Part shown: positions 3,931-27,260 of the stretch, one piece after another
How positions within the stretch are numbered: the stretch's first letter is position 1
Layout: each line of letters begins with the position of its first letter
Source: Haliotis rufescens
Lineage: Eukaryota
DNA length: 64,000 nt
Direction: 5' to 3'
Assembly (NCBI RefSeq): GCF_023055435.1
Contig: NW_025963890.1
Coordinates: 33,666,001-33,730,000 of the forward strand
Notes under the pieces: model-generated
Told to the model about the DNA's origin: nothing
Database searches by the model: none
What the model saw: only the letters and a program-made list of their open reading frames with translations
Made by a program: the position numbers and the translations under genes

Positions 3931-4054
3931 GATCCAGCAGTCCACAATCCACTATGCTATTAAAGACCATTGGGACAGTAACCCTTCCAATAGAACTTGG
4001 TCAAGCAGTATTTTCCTGTATATACCCTCGGATACCTATACATTAACCTAGAAC

Positions 4055-4206
4055 CTGAAAAAAACGACATTTCTGACATTCAACAGTTTCTGCATTTAAC
4101 AGATCGGGGAAGTTGTGAAAACACTCCTCCACTAACAACAACATTGCCTGTGGTTGACATGAAGCCATTTCTGCTGCAATCCCAGCCGTGATGTTGTTGA
4201 TGTAAG
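4055..4206 (-). CDS. Candidate internal exon of an unidentified host gene (..AYINNITAGIAAEMASCQPQAMLLLVEECFHNFPDLLNAETVECQKCRFFQ)
   Basis: AG acceptor and GT donor, open frame, phase compatible with the candidate exon at 4338-4463. No family recognised. Confidence 0.4.
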
Positions 4207-4337
4207 CTGCCAGATAAGCAGCACACACATAACACTGAGCTTCCAAACATACACAATATATAACAGGTAATTAGTGCTGGTCTTGTGAGTGTGTGCATCA
4301 CTATGTAACTTCTACATTCAGCACTGTCTCACCAGAC

Positions 4338-6200: not shown

Positions 6201-8890
6201 CTCTGTTGGGAATATCCATTGAACAAAGAGCATTCTCACAGGTAATATTACATACAGTCAGCATTTCTGCTTGAATCCTCATTCTCAATCCTTATCAAAT
6301 ATGTAGGTTGTCAAAATGGTCCCCAAAATAACTAAGGAGAAAACAGGGCATGAAAATAGGTTGTCGATTGACAGTAACTCAATATATTGGCAAACAGCCT
6401 TTTGACAAAAGCACTTTTGAAATCCTCTTGCGGACAATCTCAGCTTTAAAGTGAGGGAGTGTGTGGCAGTACAAAACCGCAGTGTGATCTAGTCCTCATG
6501 TCACAGTACACAGTGAGCTAGTTCTTGGTGAGGTCAAGTTGAGTGCCATACACCTAGCTTCCAGGTATATGTGAACTAATTGACCCTGCTAATCTGACTG
6601 CTTCATTTATGCTGCAAATTCACTGGCTCACTGTCGAGAGTCCTGCATGGAGGCAGTGGCAATGCGCTCGAAAGAAAGGCAATAGCAATTTGTCAAACTT
6701 TCCATGCTCCATTGCAGTGTTTGACAGCTCAGTGTGGGGCTTACTCCTATAAACAGACTTAACATGCATGGTTAGATAAACTACCGACTCTCATGGAGAA
6801 ATCCAAGTATCCAATTTATACACGATATATGAATTTGCTTTTAATATTATAGGGATAAAACATCCATCATTTATCATTTCAGTTACACTGCAATTCCTTT
6901 TGAGGCAACCTTGCGTCCGAGCAGACAAGTATTCTGCCAAGCTTGTAATATCTCTTATATAAATACTACCTACATAACACAAAGTCTGGGCGAGGCTCAT
7001 GTAGTTATTGTTCTTGAATAAAAACAGAAGAGTGCACAAACATGCCGTGTGTAGGGCGCTTACCTCCACTGAAACACTGCTAAGTTCGGATCACAACACA
7101 ATCAATCAGTGTATTCGGTATAAAAGAAAAGACACTAAATACCTCACTATAACGCTTCTTGTGTCGTCTGCTATCTACATACACAGAACAATAACGCGAA
7201 GTCAGCAGACGAACTGTCAAACCAACTCGGCGTCGCTAGAATTCCTATAGGCATACAAGGACAACTATTGATATAAATAACTGTAAGAAATCCCTTAATG
7301 AATCATAATGTTACACTAGAGAATAAATGGAAACGTGATTGAAAAAGATAAATGCTACTATTGTATAACACAGAAAACAATCCTTTAAATGTTGTCACTG
7401 AAAAGCAAACAAATACTCACAAGATCATAGTATCCGAGGGGACTTGGGGGATCTGCTCTAGTTGCAGAAACATACACCTGACGGTCGTACGGAAACACAG
7501 ACACCGGTGAGGACAAGCAGATGTCCCTTCCAATACGGTGGTCAGATATAAAACAAAATAAATCACACTCCTCCACATATTGATAGCGGGATATTCCCTG
7601 CTCGTGCAGTGCGCGTGTTGTGTACTGCTACCGCACGGGCTTATTGTTTTGGTGGGGAAGCACCCCTCTCGGCTTCTCGCGCGCAGAGTCGTACCGCTGG
7701 GAAATATAGTCCATCGTATAAAGTTCTTTTATTTTGTAAGCCAAGACTCGTCACTCCAATGAATAACATCGACCGTATTGATGGCATCATATGAAGCTAT
7801 GTATTCTGCACTTGATGTTTCAATAATAAGATAAAAAGTTTGTAATCTCGCGGAGGGATATGTGTGCCTCAAAATGTTTGACCCGATACGTGATTTCCCC
7901 TTCAATTTTGCGGGACAAGGATTCTTTTCTTACAGAGGCAATTATCAGAAACACGATATAGGAAATATACAATTGAATTCAACCCTCTCAAATAAGACCA
8001 ATCACTTGAAAGTTACTTTATGTCTGCCTAACAGCCTAGGGTGATATAGCACATATAACGCCTGAAGACTTAAACATTTTACGATAAACATTCAATGGAA
8101 AGAGATCCAGGCGGGATATTATGTGAAACATTATGTAACAGATGTTGCTTTATGATGTTGTCCTTTCTTGAGTTAAGTGTGGTCAGCAGTACAACACAGA
8201 TGAGAATTAGTGTACATGTTCGCCAAGCAAGGCTATCGTCCACCAAACAATATTTCATGTTACATACACTCCAAATTACAGTTTGAGTTTTCTTGTAATT
8301 TGTCTACGTTTTGTGTAGGCCACTCTCCATTGTGACTAATTTGTTAAATCTTTTTTTAAACCTAAGAACACTGTTTATGTTAAGTCCCGCTGTCAGACCA
8401 CAATTACTAGTCGCGCTGAAGTCATTGCATACTGCTCTGAAATAGTTACATTTGTCTTGCCTTATTAATCATACTGTGATCAAAATGAATGAAGTGGTAA
8501 TATTAACCAAATTGTTTGAACGATATAATGTTTCTTATTCCAATTTCCAATGTCTGCATGTTTATTTACCCAATCTTGCTGATTGGTCAATGTGACCCAG
8601 TAGTGTTTCCTGATTAATAACACTACCTTTGTTCATTACGCTAGTTTATTCATGCAAACGTTATACGTAATTATAATTACAGAACAAAACGTTATTACAG
8701 TTATGCAGTGATCAGTTGAACATTAGGCTTAAGTAAATAACTACCAGCGAAGATGAACACTTTAATTACTTCACTTTTGGAAGCCACAGTTTTCAGAACG
8801 TAACCCCCCTACTAGCAGTCCGCATGGTGGGTTTAATTTACTGTATGATCGATCCACTTGTGTAATCTACGGAAGTCATTTAGGGCAATT

Positions 8891-15024: not shown

Positions 15025-16630
15025 GGTGCAGACAGACACAGAAAACTTATAAAGACACAAAGGCACAAAGCGAAAAGATGCAGACAGACAAAAACTATTC
15101 ATAGACACACACGGGCATAAAGCGAATAGATACAGACAGATACAAAATAATCATAGACACACACGGGCATAAAGCGAATAGATGCAGACAGGTACAAAAT
15201 AATCAGACACACACGGGCATAAAGCGAATAGATGCAGACAGACACAAACTAATCAGACACAGGCATAAAGCGAATAGATGCAGACAGGTACAAAATAATC
15301 AGACACACGGGCACAAAGCGAATAGATGCAGACAGGTACAAAATAATCAGACACACACGGGCACAAAGCGAATAGATGCAGACAGGTACAAAATAATCAG
15401 ACACACACGGGCACAAAGCGAATAGATGCAGACAGGTACAAAATAATCAGACACAGGCATAAAGCGAATAGATGCAGGCAGACACAAACTAATCAGACAC
15501 AGGCATAAAGCGAATAGATGCAGGCAGACACAAACTAATCAGACACAGGCATAAAGCGAATAGATGCAGGCAGGTACAAAATAATCATAGACACACACAG
15601 GCACATGGCGAATAGATGCAGACAGAAACACAATAATCAGACACACAGGTACAAAGCAAATAGATGCAGACAGACACAAAATAATCATAGCCACATACAG
15701 GCACAAAGCGAATAGATGCAGAAAGAAACAAAATAATCAGACACACACAGGCACAAAGCGAATAGATGCAGACAGGTACAAAATAATCAGACACACACGG
15801 GCACAAAGCGAATAGATGCAGACAGGTACAAAATAATCAGACACACACGGGCACAAAGCGAATAGATGCAGACAGGTACAAAATAATCAGACACACGGGC
15901 ACAAAGCGAATAGATGCAGACAGACACAAACTAATCAGACACAGGCATAAAGCGAATAGATGCAGACAGGTACAAAATAATCAGACACAGGCATAAAGCG
16001 AATAGATGAAGGCAGACACAAACTAATCAGACACAGGCATAAAACGAATAGATGCAGACAGGTACAAAATAATCAGACACACACGGGCACATGGCGAATA
16101 GATGCAGACAGACAGAAAATAATCATAGACACACAGGTACAATGCGAATAGATGCAGGCAGACACAAACTAATCAGACACAGGCATAAAGCGAATAGATG
16201 CAGGCAGACACAAACTAATCATAGACACACACAGGCACATTGCGAATAGATGCAGACAGAAACACAATAATCAGACACACAGGTACAAAGCAAATAGATG
16301 CAGACAGACACAAAATAATCATAGCCACATACAGGCACAAAGCGAATAGATGCAGAAAGAAACAAAATAATCAGACACACACAGGCACAAAGCGAATAGA
16401 TGCAGACAGACAAAATAATCAGACACACAGGTACAAAGCGAATAGCAGACAGACACAAAATAATCATACACAGACACAGGCACAAAACGAATAGATGCAG
16501 ACAGACACAAAATTATCAGACACACAGGTACAAAGCGAATAGATGCAGACAGACAGAAAATAATCATAGACACACAGGTACAATGCGAATAGATGCAGAC
16601 AGACACAAACTAATCATATATACAAACAGG
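15025..16630. repeat. 46-52-bp minisatellite (GCACAAAGCGAATAGATGCAGACAGGTACAAAATAATCAGACACAC..)
   Basis: Direct reading. Unit length varies with the internal (CA)n. Confidence 0.95.
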
Positions 16631-16964
16631 CACATTGCCCCACCCCTCAACACAGGCATGTAGCGCATCGCCCTGAATCTAAAAACTGCTGTCACTATAA
16701 ATTAGGATTTTGACATTGCTGTCGTCAAGGATCAATGGCCCCCAACACAGGCCATATCAGGGTTCAATAGCGGGACTGATCTCCTGGACGGGGGATAATG
16801 TACGTGTAGTGGCCCTAAGGTAAATGGACCGATTTTGCGGCTGTGTGTCACCTGAGTCAGATTACTGTTATCTCGCGTCTCCCCACCTGCATGTGCACCT
16901 GCTAGTTCTCATACAAGAAGTGTGGTATCATATTCTGCAAGGAAACACGGGCTAATATTATGCT

Positions 16965-17488
16965 GTATACTGTGGTCCCCTGTGTGTTGTGAGAAACATA
17001 TACTGTTGTCCCCTGTGTGTTGTCAAATACATACACTGTGGTCCCCAGTGTGTTGTTAAATACATACACTGTGGTCCCCTGTGTGTTGTCAGAAACATAC
17101 ACTGTGGTCCCCTGTGTGTTGTCAGATACATACACTGTAGTCCCCTGTGTGTTGTCAGATACATACACTGTGGTCCCCTGTGTGTTGTCAGATACATACA
17201 CTGTGGTCCCCTGTGTGTTGTCAAACACATACACTGTTGCCGTCTGTGTGTTGTCAAATAGATATACTGTGGTCCTCTATGTGTTGTCAAATACATACAC
17301 TGTGGTCCCCTGTGTGTTGTCAAACACATACACTGTTGTCGTCTGTGTGTTGTCAAACAGATATACTGTGGCCCTCTCTGTGTTATCAGATACATACACT
17401 GTGTTCCTCTGTGTGTTGTCAAATACATACACTGTGGTCGTCTGTGTGTTGTCAGATACATATACTGTGGTCCTCTGTGTGTGGTCAG
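16965..17488. repeat. 33-bp minisatellite (TGTGTGTTGTCAGATACATACACTGTGGTCCCC), left part
   Basis: 11-aa periodicity in the overlapping ORFs. Same unit and orientation as 22375-23030. Confidence 0.95.
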
Positions 17489-17605
17489 GCGTGCGCATCC
17501 AAGATGGCGGCACTTCCGGTTCCGGGAGGGCGTGCGCCTCCAACATGGCGGCTGCGGCGGGAAGGCGGGGGGCGGGGAGGAGGCGGGAGGAGGAAGGAGG
17601 CGGGT
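17488..17605. promoter_or_regulatory. GC-rich cluster of transcription-factor-like sites: two YY1-like (CAAGATGGCGG, CAACATGGCGG), ETS (ACTTCCGG), NRF1-like (GCGTGCGC), GC boxes
   Basis: Direct repeat GGCGTGCGC(A/C)TCCAA(G/C)ATGGCGGC occurs twice. Function inferred. Confidence 0.5.
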
Positions 17606-17669
17606 TCTTTGTTTTGGTTTGGTGGGTAGTGGTGGAGGTGGAGGGTAGTCAAAGCAAGGATGAAAGCGA

Positions 17670-17709
17670 TCTTTCGGGAGAGATGGGTGGCCCTGAAAGG
17701 GCCGTTTGG
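17670..17709 (-). terminator. Replication-dependent histone mRNA 3'-end signal: stem-loop plus HDE
   Basis: Minus strand CCAAAC-GGCCCT-TTC-AGGGCC-ACCCA-tctctccc-GAAAGA. Matches the consensus stem-loop (loop one T short), the ACCCA cleavage site and a purine-rich downstream element. Confidence 0.85.
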
Positions 17710-17811
17710 AGAAGATGAAAAAACAGGAACGGGAACCGGAAACGGGAAACATGAACGGGAACACGAACGGGAAACGGAAACGTCATCCTAGCTTTTTTAG
17801 GGCCGTGGCAC

Positions 17812-18282
17812 TCAGCCACAGTAACAGCATGGTTGCCAACGACCAAAGTAGCTACAGTTGGCGAATGGCGTCTCCTGTGATGATGTCGGCTCTTTAGGCT
17901 CTTCAGGGTGTGGGTGCGGGTGTGTCATGATATGTTTCTTAACACCTCCTGTAGCCGGGGTGCTCTTGACGTGCAGCCTTGAGGATCCGCTGTCGGGGAG
18001 CTTTTTCCTCCTCCTCCTTCTCCGAGGGAGGGTGGCGGAGCGTTCTGACGAGCAGCCTTGAGGATCTTCTTTTCCTGAGGAGGGGATCGGAGTGCTCTAG
18101 TCCTCTGTCGCCGGGAAGGGTGCCTTTTCTTCTCAAGAGGAGGAGGAGGCAGCCGGAGCGCTCTGACGAGCAGCCTTGGGGGTAATGGCGTCGGGGAGCC
18201 TTTTCTCCTCTTCCTTTTCCATAGAATGTTGTAGCCGGGGTGAATCCAGTCCAGAATCCTCCTCCTTCTCCCAGGTGAACAT
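17812..18282 (-). pseudogene. Decayed gene for a histone H3 N-terminal-tail-repeat protein with no histone fold
   Basis: ATG at 18282. Across single-base frameshifts it reads GEKAPRRHYP-KAARQSAPA, KILKAARQNAPP and GGKAPRQRILKAAR(Q)[11 protein letters not shown], versus H3 [28 protein letters not shown]. Ends CCYCG-stop at 17812. Confidence 0.75.
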
Positions 18283-18310
18283 GATGGTGTTGCTTGGACA
18301 GTCCAGTGAA

Positions 18311-18562
18311 AAGTGATGGCAAGAGAACGTCTGTCGTATTTAAAGGCACTGAAACCCTGCTTCCTGATTGGTGGAAAATCCGACCTCATTGGTGAAGAAC
18401 CAGACCTTCTCATTGTTTGGTTTCTGTCCCACACGTCACCCCGTGTGGCACACCCATTGTGTTTCTTTTCCATAGGGTCAGGCTTGTATCATGGGAGAGA
18501 AAGCACAATGGTGTTTCGACCAATTCAGAGGGCCGTCCAGGGCGGGGACAGTCTCTGATTGG
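18311..18562 (-). promoter_or_regulatory. Histone-gene-like promoter: Inr-like CCATCACTT, TATA-like TTTAAATA, several CCAAT boxes, GC box
   Basis: TTTAAATA at 18337-18344, about 30 nt from the Inr. CCAAT at 18367, 18388, 18520 and 18558. GGGCGGGG at 18540. Confidence 0.65.
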
Positions 18563-18764
18563 TCCAAAACCCTAGCGTCTCATTAGTTAGATTTCGATCC
18601 TGTTATTTTAGTCTCTCGGGGTGGTGTATGTCGATCCACTTTCGGTCCGTGGGTTCATGGCTTCATGGCTTCATGGATGGAAGTGAGCAGAGCATGGTAT
18701 GCTCTCCGAACACGTCTGTCTTCAAGATAAATCACCAGCAGCCAACATAGCGTGAGGAACATCA

Positions 18765-21700
18765 TTAGTCTCTGTACCCAAAGGGGAGCGTGTCTACAGG
18801 CAGGCCTGTGGTTGCGTCATAGACAATGTATCGCTTGTCGTAAATGGTGCGGTAGTCTTTTTTGGTGGGTTGGGTCACAAGATCGTTCCCATGCTGATGG
18901 TGGTAATCCACGCTGATTTTCTCCCCCTCCTTCCCAGGCCATTGTCCCTTAAGCAGTCCTTTCATAGTGTCAAAGTTGAGGTGTTGTTGGTTTCTATAAT
19001 TCAAGGTGAACCCTCGCACTTTGCAGGTCGTGCACGTTCAATCGGGTCTTGGGTTCATTAACTCATAGCCATAGTTTTTGGGACCTCCTGACACAAACGT
19101 CTTGATGGTGTTTCCGTTCAGTTCGTCTGTAAAATCACCCAACGAATTGCCCAGCTCTGGATTCCATTCCCCGGGTCGATGAATGTATAAGACGCTGTAC
19201 GTGTCGAAGTACAAGGCCCTGCGACCCAATGGGCTGAGGGTCTTGTACAGCTCGAGACGCCCTTGTGTGGTGACCCAAGCAGCCACAACGTCATTGGAAT
19301 TAGGATGGGGTGTGAGGAATTCTTCCTTGCGGGTATAGGTCACCTTCATAATATGTTCGTTGATGAAGGTGATATCGTCTATGGTATTTTGTTCATCTCT
19401 CAACAGAGCAAAGTACTTGGCAGGATCACTCATATAGACAGACTGACCATAGTCTAAGCGCTGTCCGTACTTGCCCCAGAGCGAATTAAGACAGAGCTTG
19501 GCAATAGAGCGGCGTCCTGGGTTCTTCTTGTTGTGGTCCTTGTTCAGCCGGATGCCTTCTTTCCGATGGATCTCCTTGATGTAGGCATCGTGATTGGTAC
19601 ATCCCTCAGGGTATCCGATGGCTTCGAACTTCATCTTGAAAAAATGGTCGATATAAGGGGCAAAGAGTCCTCCTTCCTGGGTGTCGGGGTCATACTTCTC
19701 AAAGGTGTCGAAATGCCAAGCCTCGTAGATCTAAAGCACTTTGTAGCCATACTTCTTCACGGCTTCATGGAGTTCTGTGGTGGTGTACGTGCCCACCCAG
19801 GCCCTCTCTTCGCCCGTGTGCTCGCAGGACGTCTGTGACCGGGTTTCGGCACATGTGCGGCACAAAGGAGTGAGCAGTTTTCCACCCGATCTGTAGGGCA
19901 GGAGCGGATGGTAGAGGTGTGTCGGGAGTAGGACATGACAATGGATAAGACCTTTCAGATCAAACAACTTCTCCACAGGAGGTTGATGGTAGAGGGTCGG
20001 ATGTCCCGTGGGAAACTCTCTGGTCTTGCAAATGTAGGGATAAAGTGAACAGATATCAATATACTTGATGGTTTCACCTTCTTGGGCCTCGTAGCATAAT
20101 CGGGTGGCATTGGTTCGTCCTCCATGGAAGGCGTCGCGAGGGTTTAGCGGGGCAGGTAGGTTGGTACAGTGGGGTCCCTGCATGAAAGCGAGCAAAGCTG
20201 GGTCTGACAGTTGCTGGGCTTTAAAGTCGCATTCCCACAGGGTGACGATACGCTTCACATCAGGGTGTTGCTTCAAGAGGCCCAGGCGATAGTGGGTGTT
20301 GGTATAACGTGCTCCCATCACTGTGCACAGGACGGCATGAGGTTCTCCACGTTTGGTCTTGCAACAGGAGCAGCACCCATACCAGAAAGAGCCCATGAAT
20401 TCATACATGGTGCCTGTCGCTGGATCATAGCCATTCACCCTGTAATGATGATTACCCTCTCCGGACATGAACATCTTTTCGACCCCATTCTTGGCGTGCT
20501 GGATGTGCAGATTGGGGTCGGTCTCCATGAGATAACATAACCAGTTCATACAGGCCTGGGAATATCTTCTCTCTGGTTAGTAGCCTTAAGGTGGGATAAT
20601 GGCTATAGTTTTGGGTTTCAGAAAGAGTTTTCGGAAGATTTTTTGCGGAGAGCGAAGGGAGTGTCACCAGCTCTACAAAGGGATCCACGCCGCACTCCGT
20701 CATGAAGTCCTACCGGAAGGCATCCACATCTTGCAAGTCAAACAAGGCTCCTTTTTTAACTTTCTTCGTACGCCACTTGAGGAAGGCGATGCGTTCCGTG
20801 GGAGACATGCCATCGTGATCGTACATGACGGCTGGTGGATAGGAACCGCTGTAGGTCTGGTTGGCCTGTGTATTGAACAAGTGAGGAAAATTCAGTTCAT
20901 TCAGTTCAAAGGTCTCTGGAAATGTTTTCAGCGGCCAGGGCAGGAAATTCAAACTAACCTTGAAACACAAGCGTCCCACGGTCGTCTGTAAAATCTGTAG
21001 CCCTCTCCAAATCTCGGCTGGGGGGTTTCACCAGATGCGGGAGCATGCCCTTCATGATCAAGTGCAGATCATACCCCCGCGCGTTATGAGCAATCGCATA
21101 AATTACGTCATCCTTCTCAGGCGGCTGGACGGGGGTGTTTTTCGCCTCCTTCGTCTCCTCCTCCTCAAACAGGGGTGAGCGCGTCCATCTCCATGGCATC
21201 CTCCCCCTCCTCCTTGGATGGTTGACGTCGCAGACGCTTTGTAGGGGGCTTGCTTGAGAGGGTTCTGTCATGTTTTCTTTTGCCTAGGTGTGCTGCTGCC
21301 CCCTTTTGTGCGTCCTCCTCTTGGTTCCTCTTCTTGGGTTTTTCAGACAGGGTCATCAACCATGCACACACATCGTCTAGTGTGGTGGGGCCTTGAAACA
21401 CTTTCTCACGGCTGGGACCATAACCTATTCTCTCCATGGACAGTCTTTGCACAACTCCTTTGTCGCTTGACCGATGCACTGTCCACATCCTAAACGCACC
21501 ACGCACAAATTCGGGATGTGCAGCCCCGTCTCTTGCGTACATTCAAAATTATAGTAGAGGAATTTGACGTTGTCTCGTCGGACTTGGTTTTAGCATCCCT
21601 CCTCCTCCGCATCATTGGCTTCATGGAGGGGAGTGACGTAGCATCGATGGTCTGGGGACACGGGTTCTCGACACACTAAGCATGGAAGTCGCTCATCTTG

Positions 21701-22370
21701 GATGTCTCCATGACGCGTACAAGCTGAAAACAGGTTGGGCACTTGTGAATCGATTGACAGGCGCTGGGTCCTCCCTCTGACGGTTGACTGGAGATGTCGG
21801 ATGTAACAGCGTTGATTTCGGAACCATCCTTGACATGCCAAGCAAGACATCCCATGATCTTCCTGGGGTCCGCAAGGGGTGGGGTGGAGTGGAGGCAGCG
21901 GTGGCAGCGATGGCAACGATATTGCTTGCAGCAGGGGTGTTTTTCGTGATGATCATAACCGTGGTCGCAGAATTCGCAGTAATGGTAAGACCCATCAAAG
22001 GCTGCCATGGAAGTGATCACATCGAAGTGGTCACGATGATGGTATAAATGCAGCACGGTGGCGTCGGGTGGTGCCTCATCACACTTGTACAACAGTCTGT
22101 TGAACACATCTTGACTGTAGACTTTCAGTTGATAGTTCATTTGGGCCAGGGCACGTCCCACGCGTTCTAGGTCGTCCAGGCCCTGACAGCGACCTTCAGA
22201 AATGCAAAAGCGCCGAAACAATGCCCGTACCTGTTTGCCTTGAACGTTGACTCCATCCGTTCTCGTCAGTCTCTTTCTTCGACAGTGCCATTCTGGGAGG
22301 GTTTGGCTTCTGGGCATAATGCAGTGCCACCACAATGGCCCTTGCCAAACAGGATTGATCTTCGTTCTTG
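18765..22370 (-). pseudogene. Protein-primed family B DNA polymerase (pPolB), frameshifted and 5'-truncated
   Basis: In order: LYHHRDHFDVITSM..YCEFC Cys-rich N-terminal region, ExoI YYNFEC, ExoII AHNARGYD, Vsr-like insert HIQHAKNG..YEFMGSFWYGC, motif A YIDICSLYP, motif B KLCLNSLWGKYGQ, motif C LYFDTYS, GPKNYGY, YDKR..TLPFGY. Confidence 0.95.
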
Positions 22371-22374
22371 ATCT

Positions 22375-23030
22375 GTACTGTGGTCCTCTGGGTGTTGTCA
22401 AATACATGAACTGTAGTCCCCCGTGTGTTGTCAAATACATGTACTGTAGTCCCCGTGTGTTGTCAAATACATGTACTGTAGTCCCCCGTGTGTTGTCAAA
22501 TACATATACTGTGGTCATCTGTGTGTTGTCAGATACATATACTGTGGTCATCTGTGTGTTGTCAGATAGGTATAGTGTGGTCTTCTGTGTGTTGTCAGAT
22601 AGGTATAGTGTTGTCCCCCGTGTGTTGTCAAATACATATACTGTGGTCATCTGTGTGTTGTCAGAAACATATACTGTGGTCATCTGTGTGTTGTCAGATA
22701 CATATACTGTGGTCATCTGTGTGTTGTCAGATAGGTATAGTGTTGTCCTCTGTGTGTTGTCAAATACATACACTGTGGTCGTCTGGATGTTGTCAGATAG
22801 GTATAGTGCGGTCCTCTGTGTGTTGTCAGATAGGTATAGTGCGGTCTTCTGTGTGTTGTCAGATAGGTATAGTGTGGTCTTCTGTGTGTTGTCAGATAGG
22901 TATAGTGTAGTCTTCTGTGTGTTGTCAGATAGGTATAGTATTGTCCTCTGTGTGTTGTCAGATAGGTATTCTGTGGTCGTCTGTGTTGTCAGATACATAC
23001 ACTCTGGTCCTCTATGTGTTGTCAGATATG
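22375..23030. repeat. 33-bp minisatellite, right part
   Basis: Same unit as 16965-17488. Confidence 0.95.
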
Positions 23031-23593: not shown

Positions 23594-24798
23594 TCAATAG
23601 CGTGTGTGTCAACCACTGGTTGCGATGCAAGCAACACATCTTCGTCTCATGGAATGGACCAGGCGTCGCACAAAGTCCTGTGGGATACCTGTCCATATCT
23701 ACTGGAGCTTGTTTCGAAGTTCCTGGAGTGTCTGTGGAACACGTGGTTGACGTCGAAGGAGCCGATCCATCTCATCCCCCATGTGCTCGATTGGTGAGAG
23801 ATCAGGAGAGCTAGTCGGCCAGGGGATGACATTCACGTTGTTTTGTTGAAGAGTGTCCTGAACAAGTCGAGGAATATGAGGCCGGGCATTGTCATGTTGA
23901 AAGGTAATGCCTGGGCCATGACGACGCAAAAACGGTAGAGTGAGTGAGTGAGTGAGTGAGTGAGTATGGTTTTACGCCGCTTTTAGCAATATTCCAGCAA
24001 TATCACGGCGGGGGACACCAGAAATGGGCTTCACACATTGTACCCATGTCGGGAATCGAACCCGGGTCTTCTGCGTGACGAGCGAACGCTTTAACCACTA
24101 GGCTACCCGACCGCCCCCAAAAACGGTAGAACAACAGGGCCGATGATTTCGTCGCGGTAGCGCTGTCCATTGAGATTTCCCTCTACCACTATCAAACGGG
24201 CCTTCTGTCTTGCTGTAATCCCGCCCCATACCATAACGCTGCCGCCCCCGAACCGATCTTCTTCCATGACACAATGATTGACGTAACGTTCACCTCGACG
24301 TCGGTACACTCGAATCCGTCCATCGCTGTGGCTGAGGTGAAAACGAGACTTGTCAGTGAATAGAACTTGTCCCCACTGCATGACCGTCCAGCGTAGACGC
24401 TGTCTGCACCACTGTAGACGTGCTTGACGGTGGTTTCCTGTCAAAATGGGACGTCTGGCGGGTCTTCTGGCGACAATCCCTGCACATCTGAGGCGACGAC
24501 GTACGGTTTGTGAAGATATTCGTCGATGGCCAGGGATGCGTCTTGCAGTCACTGTTGCTGGCTGGAATCGATTTCGTAGGTGTGTTGTTCGAATCCAGTT
24601 GTCTTGTCGATTATTGGTTACGCGTGGCCTGCCACTCCTAGGATGGTCTCTGACTGCATTCGTCTGTTGCCAACGTTGTTATAAACACCAAATGGTGTTT
24701 CTGTGGACGTAAAATTGTCTTGCAACATCACGTTGACTCGATCCTGCTTCAAGCATACCAATGACTCGTAGACGCTCATTTTCTGACAGGCGTGGCAT
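23594..24798 (-). pseudogene. Tc1-like transposase with stops, frameshifts and a SINE insertion
   Basis: MPRLSENERLRVIGML start, VLFTDKSRF, GGGSVMVWGGI, FQHDNARPH, WPTSSPDLSPIEH. Confidence 0.93.
23940..24117 (-). mobile_element. Full-length tRNA-derived SINE with (ACTC)n tail, inserted in the Tc1 transposase
   Basis: A box TAGCCTAGTGG and B box GGTTCGATTCC. Perfect 13-bp TSD CAAAAACGGTAGA at 23927 and 24118. Confidence 0.95.
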
Positions 24799-25186
24799 TT
24801 CGTAATGTTGAATAATTGCGTAATTTTGTTGTTTTTCGGAGTGGTTGTTGTCAGCACGATGCTAAGCAATGCATATCATGGTATGGAATCCCGTTAACGC
24901 ACATGTTTTTCTACATATTCTTGGGTAGTGAAATGCATGGGGCTTGCATAAAAGTCAACTTTTTCATGGAATGCATGCTTTTCTGTAGAAGTTGCGTTTT
25001 TGTGACTTGATTCCATACATGTACTACAACATTGAAAAACAAACTTTACTTGTTTGAAAAATACACTAAAATATTGGTGTCACAGGAACTTTTGTTGTTG
25101 AGTACACGATTACACTCGTACTGAATATGGATAATACATTACAACATGTGTACTGGATATGGACAATACTCGATTCCGTTAAACGG

Positions 25187-27260
25187 TTTTATGGACCTAT
25201 GATATGGAAAGTTAACACTTTACGTAATAGAGGTTAACATTATGCAGAAGTTGATTAAATGCATGGTCAGCGGATTTATATAAGATATAAATTATGTGAC
25301 CTGCTGTTTGTTACCAGATATCAAGTGACCCGCTGTTTGTTATCAGATATTATATGACTTGATGTTTGTTATCAGATATTATGTGACTTGCTGTTTGTTA
25401 TCAGATATTACGTGACTTGCTGTTTGTTATCGGATATCAAGAAACCTGCTGTTTGTTATCAGATATTATGTGACTGTCGTTTCTTATCGGATATCAAATG
25501 ACCTGCTGTTTGTTACCAGTTATTATGTGACTTGCTGTTTGTTATCAGATATTTTGTGACCTGCTGTTTGTTATCAGATATTATGTGACTTGCTGTTTGT
25601 TATCAGATATAACATGACTTGCTGTTTGTTACCCGATATTATGTGACCTGCTTTTTTGTTACCAGATATTATGTGACTTGCTGTTTGTTATCAGATATTA
25701 TGTGACTTGCTGTTTGTTATCAGATATTTCGTGACTTGCTGTTTTTTATCACATATTAAGTGACTGTCGTTTCTTATCGGATATCAAGTGACCCGCGGTT
25801 TGTTACCAGATATTATGTGACTTGCTGTTTGTTATAAGATATTATGTGACTTGATGTTTGTTATCAGATATTATGTGACTTGCTGTTTGTTATCGGATAT
25901 CAAGTGACCTGCTGTTTGTTACCAGATATTATGTGACTTCCTGTTTGTTATCAGATATTATGTGACTTGCTGTTTGTTATCAGATATTACGTGACTTGCT
26001 GTTTGTTATTGGATATCAAGTTACCTGCTGTTTGTTATCAGATATTATGTGACTGTCGTTTCTTATCGGATATCAAGTGACCTGCTGTTTGTTACCAGAT
26101 ATTATGTGACTTGCTGTTTGTTATCAGATATTATGTGACTTGCTGTTTGTTATCAGATATTTTTTATGGACCTATGATATGGAAAGTTAACACTTTACGT
26201 AATAGAGGTTAACATTATGCAGATGTTGATTAAATGCATGGTCAGCGGATTTATATAAGATATAAATTATGTGACCTGCTGTTTGTTATCAGATATTATG
26301 TGACTTGCTGTTTGTTACCAGATATCAAGTGACCCGCTGTTTGTTATTGGATATCAAGTAACCTGCTGTTTTTTATCAGATATTATGTGACTATCGTTTC
26401 TTATCGGATATCAAGTGATACGCGGTTTGTTACCAGATATTATGTGACTTGCTGTTTGTTATAAGATATTATGTGACTTGATGTTTGTTATCAGATATTA
26501 AGTGACTTGCTGTTTGTTATTGGATATCAAGTGACCTGCTGTTTGTTACCAGATATTATGTGACTGTCGTTTCTTATCGGATATCAAGTGACCTGCTGTT
26601 TGTTACCAGATATTATGTGACTTGCTGTTTGTTATCAGATATTATGTGACTTGCTGTTTGTTATCAGATATTACGTGACTTGCTGTTTGTTATTGGATAT
26701 CAAGTAACCTGCTGTTTGTTATCAGATATTATGTGACTGTCGTTTCTTATCGGATATCAAGTGACCTGCTGTTTGTAACCAGATATTATGTGACTTGCTG
26801 TTTGTTATCAGATATTTTGTGACCTGCTGTCTGTTATCGGATATTATGTGACGTTCGTTTCTTATCGGATATCAAGTGACTTGCTGTTTGTTACCAGATA
26901 TTATGTGACTTGCTGTTTGTTATAAGATATAATGTGACTTCCTGTTTGTTATCAGATATTTCGTGACTTGCTGTTTTTTATCAGATATTATGTGACTGTC
27001 GTTTCTTATCGGATATCAAGTGACCTGCTGTTTGTTACCAGATATTATGTGACTTGCTGTTTGTTATCAGATATTATGTGACTTCCTGTTTGTTATTAGA
27101 TATTTCGTGACTTGCTGTTTTTTATCAGATGTTATGTGACTTCCTGTTTGTTATCAGATATCAAGTGACCTGCTGTTTGTTATCAGATATTATGTGACCT
27201 GTCTGTTTGTTATCAAATATTATGTGACCTAGTTTTTCGTATCAGATATTTTTATTCTCT
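25187..27260. repeat. 29-bp minisatellite (ATATTATGTGACTTGCTGTTTGTTATCAG) in two blocks, each led by the same ~105-bp unique segment
   Basis: Period 29 counted. Leader duplicated at about 25187 and 26163. Confidence 0.95.

Follow-up and report, generated by a model that had tools for sequence, protein, structure and literature searches.

A histone-type stem-loop at the ends of accessory genes in a Polinton family of Haliotis rufescens

Analysis of a 64,000-nucleotide stretch of Haliotis rufescens DNA (NCBI RefSeq assembly GCF_023055435.1, contig NW_025963890.1, positions 33,666,001 to 33,730,000 of the forward strand; the window), together with sister copies from the same genome, showed that a histone-type stem-loop is the family-wide end of accessory genes in a Polinton family and is not specific to the H3-tail gene beside which it lies in the window. 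The signal at the window site, which belongs to no histone gene, is most likely of the kind that works like a replication-dependent histone 3′ end. Judging from sequence, we consider it probable that the stem-loop and its downstream element served the accessory genes as an SLBP/U7-dependent mRNA 3′ end while the element was active. The window copy itself is a fossil, from which no working function is expected.

RESULTS

The stem-loop in the window

The histone-type stem-loop and downstream element are present on the minus strand of the window at 17670-17709. As read from the sequence, the site has a CCAAAC 5′ flank (17709-17704), two arms of a 6-bp stem (17703-17698 and 17694-17689) around a 3-nt loop (17697-17695), and an ACCCA 3′ flank (17688-17684); the stem-loop (17689..17703, annotated from Rfam, sister comparison, and fold) spans 17684..17709 with its conserved flanks, and cleavage would be expected after ACCCA, as in histone mRNAs. 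GAAAGA at 17675-17670 lies 13 nt after the stem (13 nt in host H1, 12 nt in host core histones) and, with 6 further nucleotides, forms a purine-rich downstream element (17664..17675, minus strand) that lines up with the corresponding element of the host histone genes, 12-13 nt from the stem. Motif, strand, place, and the 13-nt distance are as an earlier note made from the letters alone had described them, and its placing of the signal about 100 nt downstream of a tail-repeat gene agrees with the closest upstream stop of the H3-tail-like frame, 108 nt before the stem. The covariance-model check that it had proposed bore out the sisters and not the window copy, which scores 25.4 bits (E 4.3e-4) on RF00032 (Rfam Histone3), under the gathering threshold of 34; five sister sites (L105, L106, L208, L015) score 35.3-36.8 bits, host core histones 34.3-38.8 bits, and the L010 site, with one stem mismatch, falls under the threshold.

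A degenerate 21-nt motif pattern with up to 2 mismatches matched once in the window and in 0 of 100 shuffles, a count that serves only as a sanity check because the pattern was drawn up after the site had been seen. The predicted fold of the site is the 6-bp hairpin, with a z-score that alone is modest (-1.7). A long ORF across the site (16958-17752) was rejected as a mere reading of the satellite described below.

A fossil copy embedded in satellite DNA

The site lies inside a mobile element, as had been claimed: a 4.9-kb remnant (17489-22378) of an adintovirus-like Polinton family, with the same 33-bp satellite on both sides (left flank, 16969..17487; right flank, 22376..23028). Apart from the hairpin, the remnant comprises the inner part of a terminal inverted repeat, broken off before the AGTAGT terminus and containing short GC-rich motif repeats that we take to be YY1/ETS/NRF1-like (17489..17688); broken repeats derived from the H3 N-tail, with a Cys-rich C-terminal motif, split frames, and stops (17812..18270, minus strand); a promoter module common to the small cassettes of the element and here the promoter of the gene after polB (18277..18699, minus strand); and a decayed gene for a protein-primed DNA polymerase B (PF03175; 18765..22378, minus strand) whose N-terminal part is missing. 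The promoter module has a palindromic box at 18483-18502, CCAAT boxes at 18562, 18392, and 18371, and a TATA-like sequence at 18335-18346, all on the minus strand. Measured against an uninterrupted natural relative, polB is in 5 pieces and 3 frames with 11 stops.

Identity between the remnant and its closest sisters is 73-88%. Both element termini are absent, and there is no target duplication. The stretches 18277-19060 and 17560-18270 match parts that lie about 4 kb apart in a longer sister; an internal deletion near 18270 has thus set the H3-tail repeats behind the promoter of another gene. The idea that this copy has retained a working signal therefore has to be given up: it is terminus-less, embedded in satellite, and placed behind a foreign promoter through a deletion, and its tail repeats are broken in frame.

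Two runs that carry the label of another organism contain near-identical pieces of window segments 17835-17966 and 19148-19691, differing at 1-4 positions per 120-280 nt, a hint that the insertion is old and shared. Beside the remnant, at 15027-16616, 25291-27250, and 24030-24880, the window contains 50-bp and 29-bp satellites and a transposase remnant with an insertion; we take the transposase remnant to be Tc1-like and its insertion SINE-like.

Loop length and conservation in sister copies

The 3-nt loop is private to the window copy, in line with the earlier remark that it is one T short. Among 16 distinct sister sites reached via the window DNA, 14 have a 4-nt loop and 2 have lost the hairpin wholly or by half; among 29 loci picked by ATPase match alone, 19 hold the site, all of them with a 4-nt loop and 16 with a perfect stem. 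The hairpin is kept in most sister sites. Decay is the simpler reading of the short loop, rather than an assembly error, because the window copy is so decayed; among the listed pieces from the two runs labelled as another organism, none bridges the loop.

The family stem-loop is identical to that of the host H1 array and to the wild-type SLBP competitor RNA in the accessible text of PMC1635294. Across 17 of the 19 ATPase-picked copies (a small sample; two rows without the 3′ part were left out), the 16-nt hairpin is the region that varies least, at 0.007 differences per cell with no variant shared between copies; the corresponding figure for the 60 nt downstream is 0.10. The 3′ untranslated region (UTR) just upstream of the hairpin is, however, likewise little changed (0.022), and one variant is shared in the downstream hexamer. 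As a test, hairpin conservation is weak.

A family-wide gene end

The exact family pattern (hairpin plus AAAC flank) occurs 190 times in the genome, and its reversed control 0 times. Element DNA adjoins all of the first 30 sites examined, and the ORF upstream is a BIR (IAP) ORF in 12, Cys-rich in 12, and histone in 0, with no identified ORF in the other 6. Five kinds of ORF have the stem 9-130 nt behind their stop codon: those of the BIR1 cassette (~155 aa; stop ~120-130 nt before the stem), the Cys-rich cassette (~110 aa; 9-20 nt), the zinc-knuckle cassette (~113 nt), the 86-aa cassette (~47 nt), and the H3-tail peptide cassette of the older subfamily (~107 nt). These hairpin-ended ORFs are short and intronless and lie behind a shared CCAAT/TATA module; in three cassettes the stop-to-stem distance is 105-130 nt, whereas in host histones it is shorter (~25-45 nt). 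Similarity between cassettes begins sharply 3-4 nt before the stem, behind unrelated 5′ flanks, and the downstream purine element stands at a histone-like distance in all cassette types.

A different arrangement is found at the end of the second BIR gene and the capsid unit, which finish in another shared module with ATTAAA. All 7 capsid-element ends examined have a terminal repeat that retains the downstream part without the hairpin, and ATTAAA stands ~70 nt upstream of this hairpin-less end in both mapped cases (2/2). No AATAAA or ATTAAA occurs within 300 nt at 10 of 12 listed element sites, and four cassette types of this genome are without a poly(A) hexamer over that distance; in the BIR1 cassette, AATAAA lies ~130 nt downstream in 2 of 3 copies.

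The hairpin might instead be inert, having entered the terminal repeat a single time along with a captured H3 gene and then spread by duplication and repeat homogenisation, without ever processing RNA. Such a history would fit the finding that the sequence downstream of the hairpin is terminal-repeat sequence even at the internal BIR1 site, and two A-element sites sit inside terminal repeats, which are homogenised anyway. It would also fit the weakness of the within-family conservation test and the stem variation: the compensatory stem changes of a 20-row alignment (in which the window row is misaligned at the loop) come only from 3 host core histones, and none is established among element lineages, where one copy shows a double change of host-core type. 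Against it, the start of the shared module coincides with the hairpin behind five or more unrelated ORFs, the hairpin is missing precisely at the ATTAAA-bearing end, and an unrelated second family (below) has a like arrangement with a spacer of its own. We regard an inert hairpin as quite unlikely, and a function at the ends of the accessory genes as the better reading.

In seven other Polinton-type elements of this genome, with 29-52% protein identity, the hairpin was found in none; five of these are near-complete and five have BIR genes. A search of viral contigs gave 0 matches to the hairpin pattern and no capsid relative.

Histone origin and the H3-tail peptide

The tail repeats have 83% DNA identity over 81 nt with codons 13-39 of a host H3 gene, and their best matches to host H3 DNA lie at 17934-18011 (83%) and 18151-18208 (80%). 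Two sister H3-tail cassettes match the host H3 5′ UTR at 18 of 19 nt, above all 300 shuffles, and the Cys-rich cassette has a weaker match (p ~0.007); no such match was seen in the window copy or in the BIR1 and 86-aa cassettes, in a comparison that left out the H2A and H2B promoters. The spacer and downstream element of the hairpin align with host H2A and H1 3′ ends. These data suggest that histone-gene DNA was captured and that its promoter and 3′ end were later reused for other cargo.

The hairpin had been put forward as independent corroboration of the histone origin of the tail-repeat gene. That argument fails: since BIR, Cys-rich, zinc-knuckle, and other non-histone ORFs are followed by the same module, the hairpin says nothing specific about the tail-repeat gene, whose histone origin stands on the identity to host H3 DNA and the H3 5′ UTR match. 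For the same reason we find it highly improbable that the signal is specific to the H3-tail gene of the window copy and that it continues to couple the product of this gene to S phase. In its favor, the H3-derived repeats end 108 nt upstream of the stem, and sister cassettes have their own promoter, an H3-like 5′ UTR, and the hairpin, one of them with an open 69-codon frame (L010:1864-2071, minus strand). The signal is family-wide, however, and stands mostly after other ORFs, and the window copy, which has lost both termini, is interrupted by stops and frame breaks, stands behind a foreign promoter, and has a hairpin that scores under the threshold. In the window repeats (17934-18208) and most sisters, the K27 position of the H3-tail peptide is Q (KAARQS-like), followed by the Cys-rich motif; the peptide may possibly act as a decoy for chromatin enzymes.

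Polinton identity and the split into two elements

The family is identified as Polinton-type by a protein-primed PolB (PF03175 in the window fragments and in a 1417-aa sister ORF), an rve integrase with a chromo domain (PF00665, 47.4 bits) found in capsid-type elements and absent from the window remnant, an A32-like ATPase (Pox_A32, 24.1 bits), and a capsid protein whose model is a double jelly-roll (pLDDT 89.6) with the Sputnik capsid as best fold match (E 2.7e-17). The closest relatives of the capsid protein carry Haliotis species names. No Pfam match was obtained for an adenain-type protease or a penton, and a protease-like ORF compared weakly with S273R (E 0.71); the names protease and penton are our tentative assignments from gene order and motifs.

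The young lineage comes as separate polymerase and integrase/capsid elements, each with its own termini and target duplications (L097-L098, L103-L104, L208-L209, L275-L294). The polymerase element (11.4-12.0 kb) is without integrase or capsid genes; the capsid element (9.3-10.4 kb) has ATPase, integrase, capsid, and protease-like genes and no polymerase. Of the copies examined, 7 of 12 polymerase-type and 3 of 10 capsid-type elements carry AGTAGT termini together with a 6-bp target duplication, and the termini of the two types are 75-76% identical over ~500-590 nt. Among the matches listed, a capsid match lies within 20 kb of 1 of 86 young-lineage polB genes (at least 79% identity), a polB match accompanies 0 of 27 young-lineage capsid genes (at least 91% identity), and polB and capsid occur together in 6 of 7 distant families; these lists score 104 of 403 polB and 95 of 317 capsid candidates. 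In the older subfamily, to which the window copy belongs, 7 of 10 loci combine polB with structural genes. Target duplications around integrase-less elements point to complementation in trans.

A promoter module of ~230 nt with several CCAAT boxes and the palindromic box (window 18483-18502) occurs 4 times in the polymerase element (repeats at L105:1185-1425, 4017-4250, and 8602-8835) and a single time in the capsid element. Among the genome's other Polinton families we observed a 5.5-kb AGTAGT-bounded element in which the ATPase is the sole match (L265-L266:7076-12586) and a 17.7-kb element with capsid genes and no polB match (L261-L262:877-18593).

A second hairpin-ending repeat family in metagenome contigs

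Of the 23 loci that a 25-nt hairpin pattern found in metagenome contigs, 6 are true histone loci, 5 are single loci without a visible histone ORF upstream, and 12 belong to one multi-copy family (L218-L222, L225, L226, L229, L231, L234-L236). This second family has four kinds of short non-histone ORF (75, ~103, ~126, and ~178 aa), three of them with CCAAT repeats, which end 15-45 nt before a hairpin scoring 38-40 bits and have their own spacer and downstream element; a poly(A) hexamer follows 37-56 nt downstream in 3 of 4 cassette types. At two loci tandem repeats come after an AGTAGT terminus, an arrangement shared with the elements of this genome, and a zinc-knuckle ORF weakly resembles that of the Polinton family (E 2e-7). 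No polB, integrase, or capsid match was found in the 23 loci, whose contigs are short, and for this reason the second family is not filed as Polinton; that this family, from another animal, might be a Polinton is a lead only. The five single loci (L216, L217, L223, L224, and L237) have a perfect histone hairpin, and in L224 and L237 open non-histone frames stop 30-45 nt before it.

Host processing factors and host genes with histone-type ends

The host encodes SLBP (PF15247, in two exon-like pieces above the cut-off). Searches of the host for U7 gave a best score of 27.5 bits (E 0.37) with the Rfam model and no credible candidate, and two patterns gave 1 match against 3 in the control and 16 against 22, none with a convincing 3′ hairpin. 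Contigs of three runs guessed to be RNA covered genes and spacers alike, and one small-RNA run had 11 reads.

The host H1 genes are arranged apart, in a 3-kb tandem array (G000:C445:49.27-49.67 Mb), and host core histones lie in 4.1-kb repeats on many small contigs (C110, C251, C261, C265, and others). A single-exon 300-aa ORF with a SET domain (PF00856, 43.5 bits) at L109:9039-9972 (G000:C135, ~4.802 Mb) has a CCAAT/TATA-like promoter, an H4-like 5′ UTR match, and, 14 nt after its stop, a stem-loop of 42.6 bits, the best RF00032 match among the matches listed. No homolog was found at E 1e-10. Element cargo was rejected, as there is no element sequence in the flanks of this ORF; it is a candidate for a non-histone gene of the host whose end is of the histone type.

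DISCUSSION

Our results suggest a sequence of events in which an ancestor element captured host histone-gene DNA, comprising an H3 5′ UTR and N-tail and a histone 3′ end, and in which the captured promoter and 3′ end became a general cassette through swapping of the coding part. Cleavage of the cassette mRNAs would fall after ACCCA and leave them without poly(A), and they would accumulate and decay along with host DNA synthesis; anti-apoptotic and regulatory products might thereby be timed to the phase of element replication. The poly(A) hexamers that follow the hairpin in host H1 (AATAAA ~45 nt after its stem), in two of three BIR1 copies, and in three of four second-family cassette types indicate that poly(A) ends may coexist, and strict confinement to S phase is not to be assumed.

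These same hexamers would fit an RNA-level use other than a strict S-phase end, in which SLBP binding serves translation, export, or a decoy competing with histone mRNAs, or in which the hairpin stops read-through into the terminus, with messages also or mainly polyadenylated. HCMV offers a precedent as a virus that uses SLBP for another purpose, according to the accessible text of PMC9169081. We nevertheless think such uses fairly unlikely: the downstream purine element, needless for SLBP binding alone, stands at a histone-like distance in all cassettes, and four cassette types here are hexamer-free within 300 nt. The hairpin-to-HDE distance is described as critical for processing in the part of PMC1635294 consulted. 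A histone-type 3′ end for the accessory genes thus remains our preferred reading.

The signal resembles the histone mRNA 3′ end (RF00032, SLBP, U7 snRNP) in its 6-bp stem, the 4-nt loop of the sisters, the AAC and ACC(C)A flanks, the purine-rich element 12-13 nt downstream, and its position behind short intronless CCAAT/TATA ORFs. Unlike that system, the element ORFs are non-histone and lie within an integrating virus-like element, the 3′ UTR is longer in three element cassettes, the loop of the window copy is 3 nt, and processing of the element's messages is a prediction from sequence. Histone mRNAs are given as the only non-polyadenylated mRNAs of eukaryotic cells in the available text of PMC12305476, and hairpins with purine elements have been described for bivalve histone genes (PMC6210712, accessible portion).

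The elements share with Polintons/Mavericks and adintoviruses, as these are presented in the accessible parts of PMC8502044 and PMC11161782 (Starrett et al. 2021; Krupovic et al. 2024), a pPolB, an rve integrase with a chromo domain, an A32-like ATPase, a double-jelly-roll capsid, IAP-like accessory genes, terminal inverted repeats, and 6-bp target duplications; adintovirus accessory genes include IAP and SET (PMC8502044, same parts). They differ in that the young lineage is divided over polymerase and integrase/capsid elements, and histone-type 3′ ends of accessory genes go unmentioned in the accessible parts of both sources.

Bidnaviruses are ssDNA viruses with parvovirus-type capsids and no known integrase. 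As in the elements described here, their replication and structural genes reside on separate molecules with a common terminal sequence; two segments with matching termini and a pPolB are described in the accessible part of PMC8502044. The present elements, in contrast, are integrated and have a double-jelly-roll capsid and an integrase. Viral histones (Talbert et al. 2022, PMC9145170, accessible text) likewise involve host H3-derived coding sequence in a DNA virus-like element, but here only tail residues 13-39 are present, in repeated form and with no histone fold; the words "stem-loop," "polyadenyl," and "Polinton" have 0 occurrences in that text. Large DNA viruses are characterized as being without SLBP or processing factors in the available part of 10.64898/2026.10.14.759114.

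In the full-text literature searched, we found no report of a histone stem-loop in a Polinton or any other virus, 0 papers joining "histone stem-loop" and "Polinton," and no two-part Polinton of complementary integrating halves; Repbase/Dfam entries and subscription papers could already describe the elements. A broader picture, which we offer tentatively as possible rather than probable, is that of a segmented integrating lineage of animal Polinton-type viruses, with polymerase and capsid/integrase on two complementary linear DNAs, that would express its accessory genes (IAPs, zinc-binding proteins, and the H3-tail peptide) as non-polyadenylated, S-phase-coupled mRNAs via host SLBP/U7; a second Polinton-like family in another animal would do likewise, and these would be the first viral clients of the histone 3′-end machinery.

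If a histone-type 3′ end for the accessory genes is true, the SLBP/U7 pathway gains a second, parasitic class of client. The cassettes would then be natural reporters of whether a hairpin and downstream element suffice for histone-type processing off histone loci, with built-in controls in the cassettes with and without the hairpin and in the sister Polinton families that are without it. The arrangement also suggests how a nuclear DNA element that has no replication-timing genes of its own could match its expression to the host S phase.
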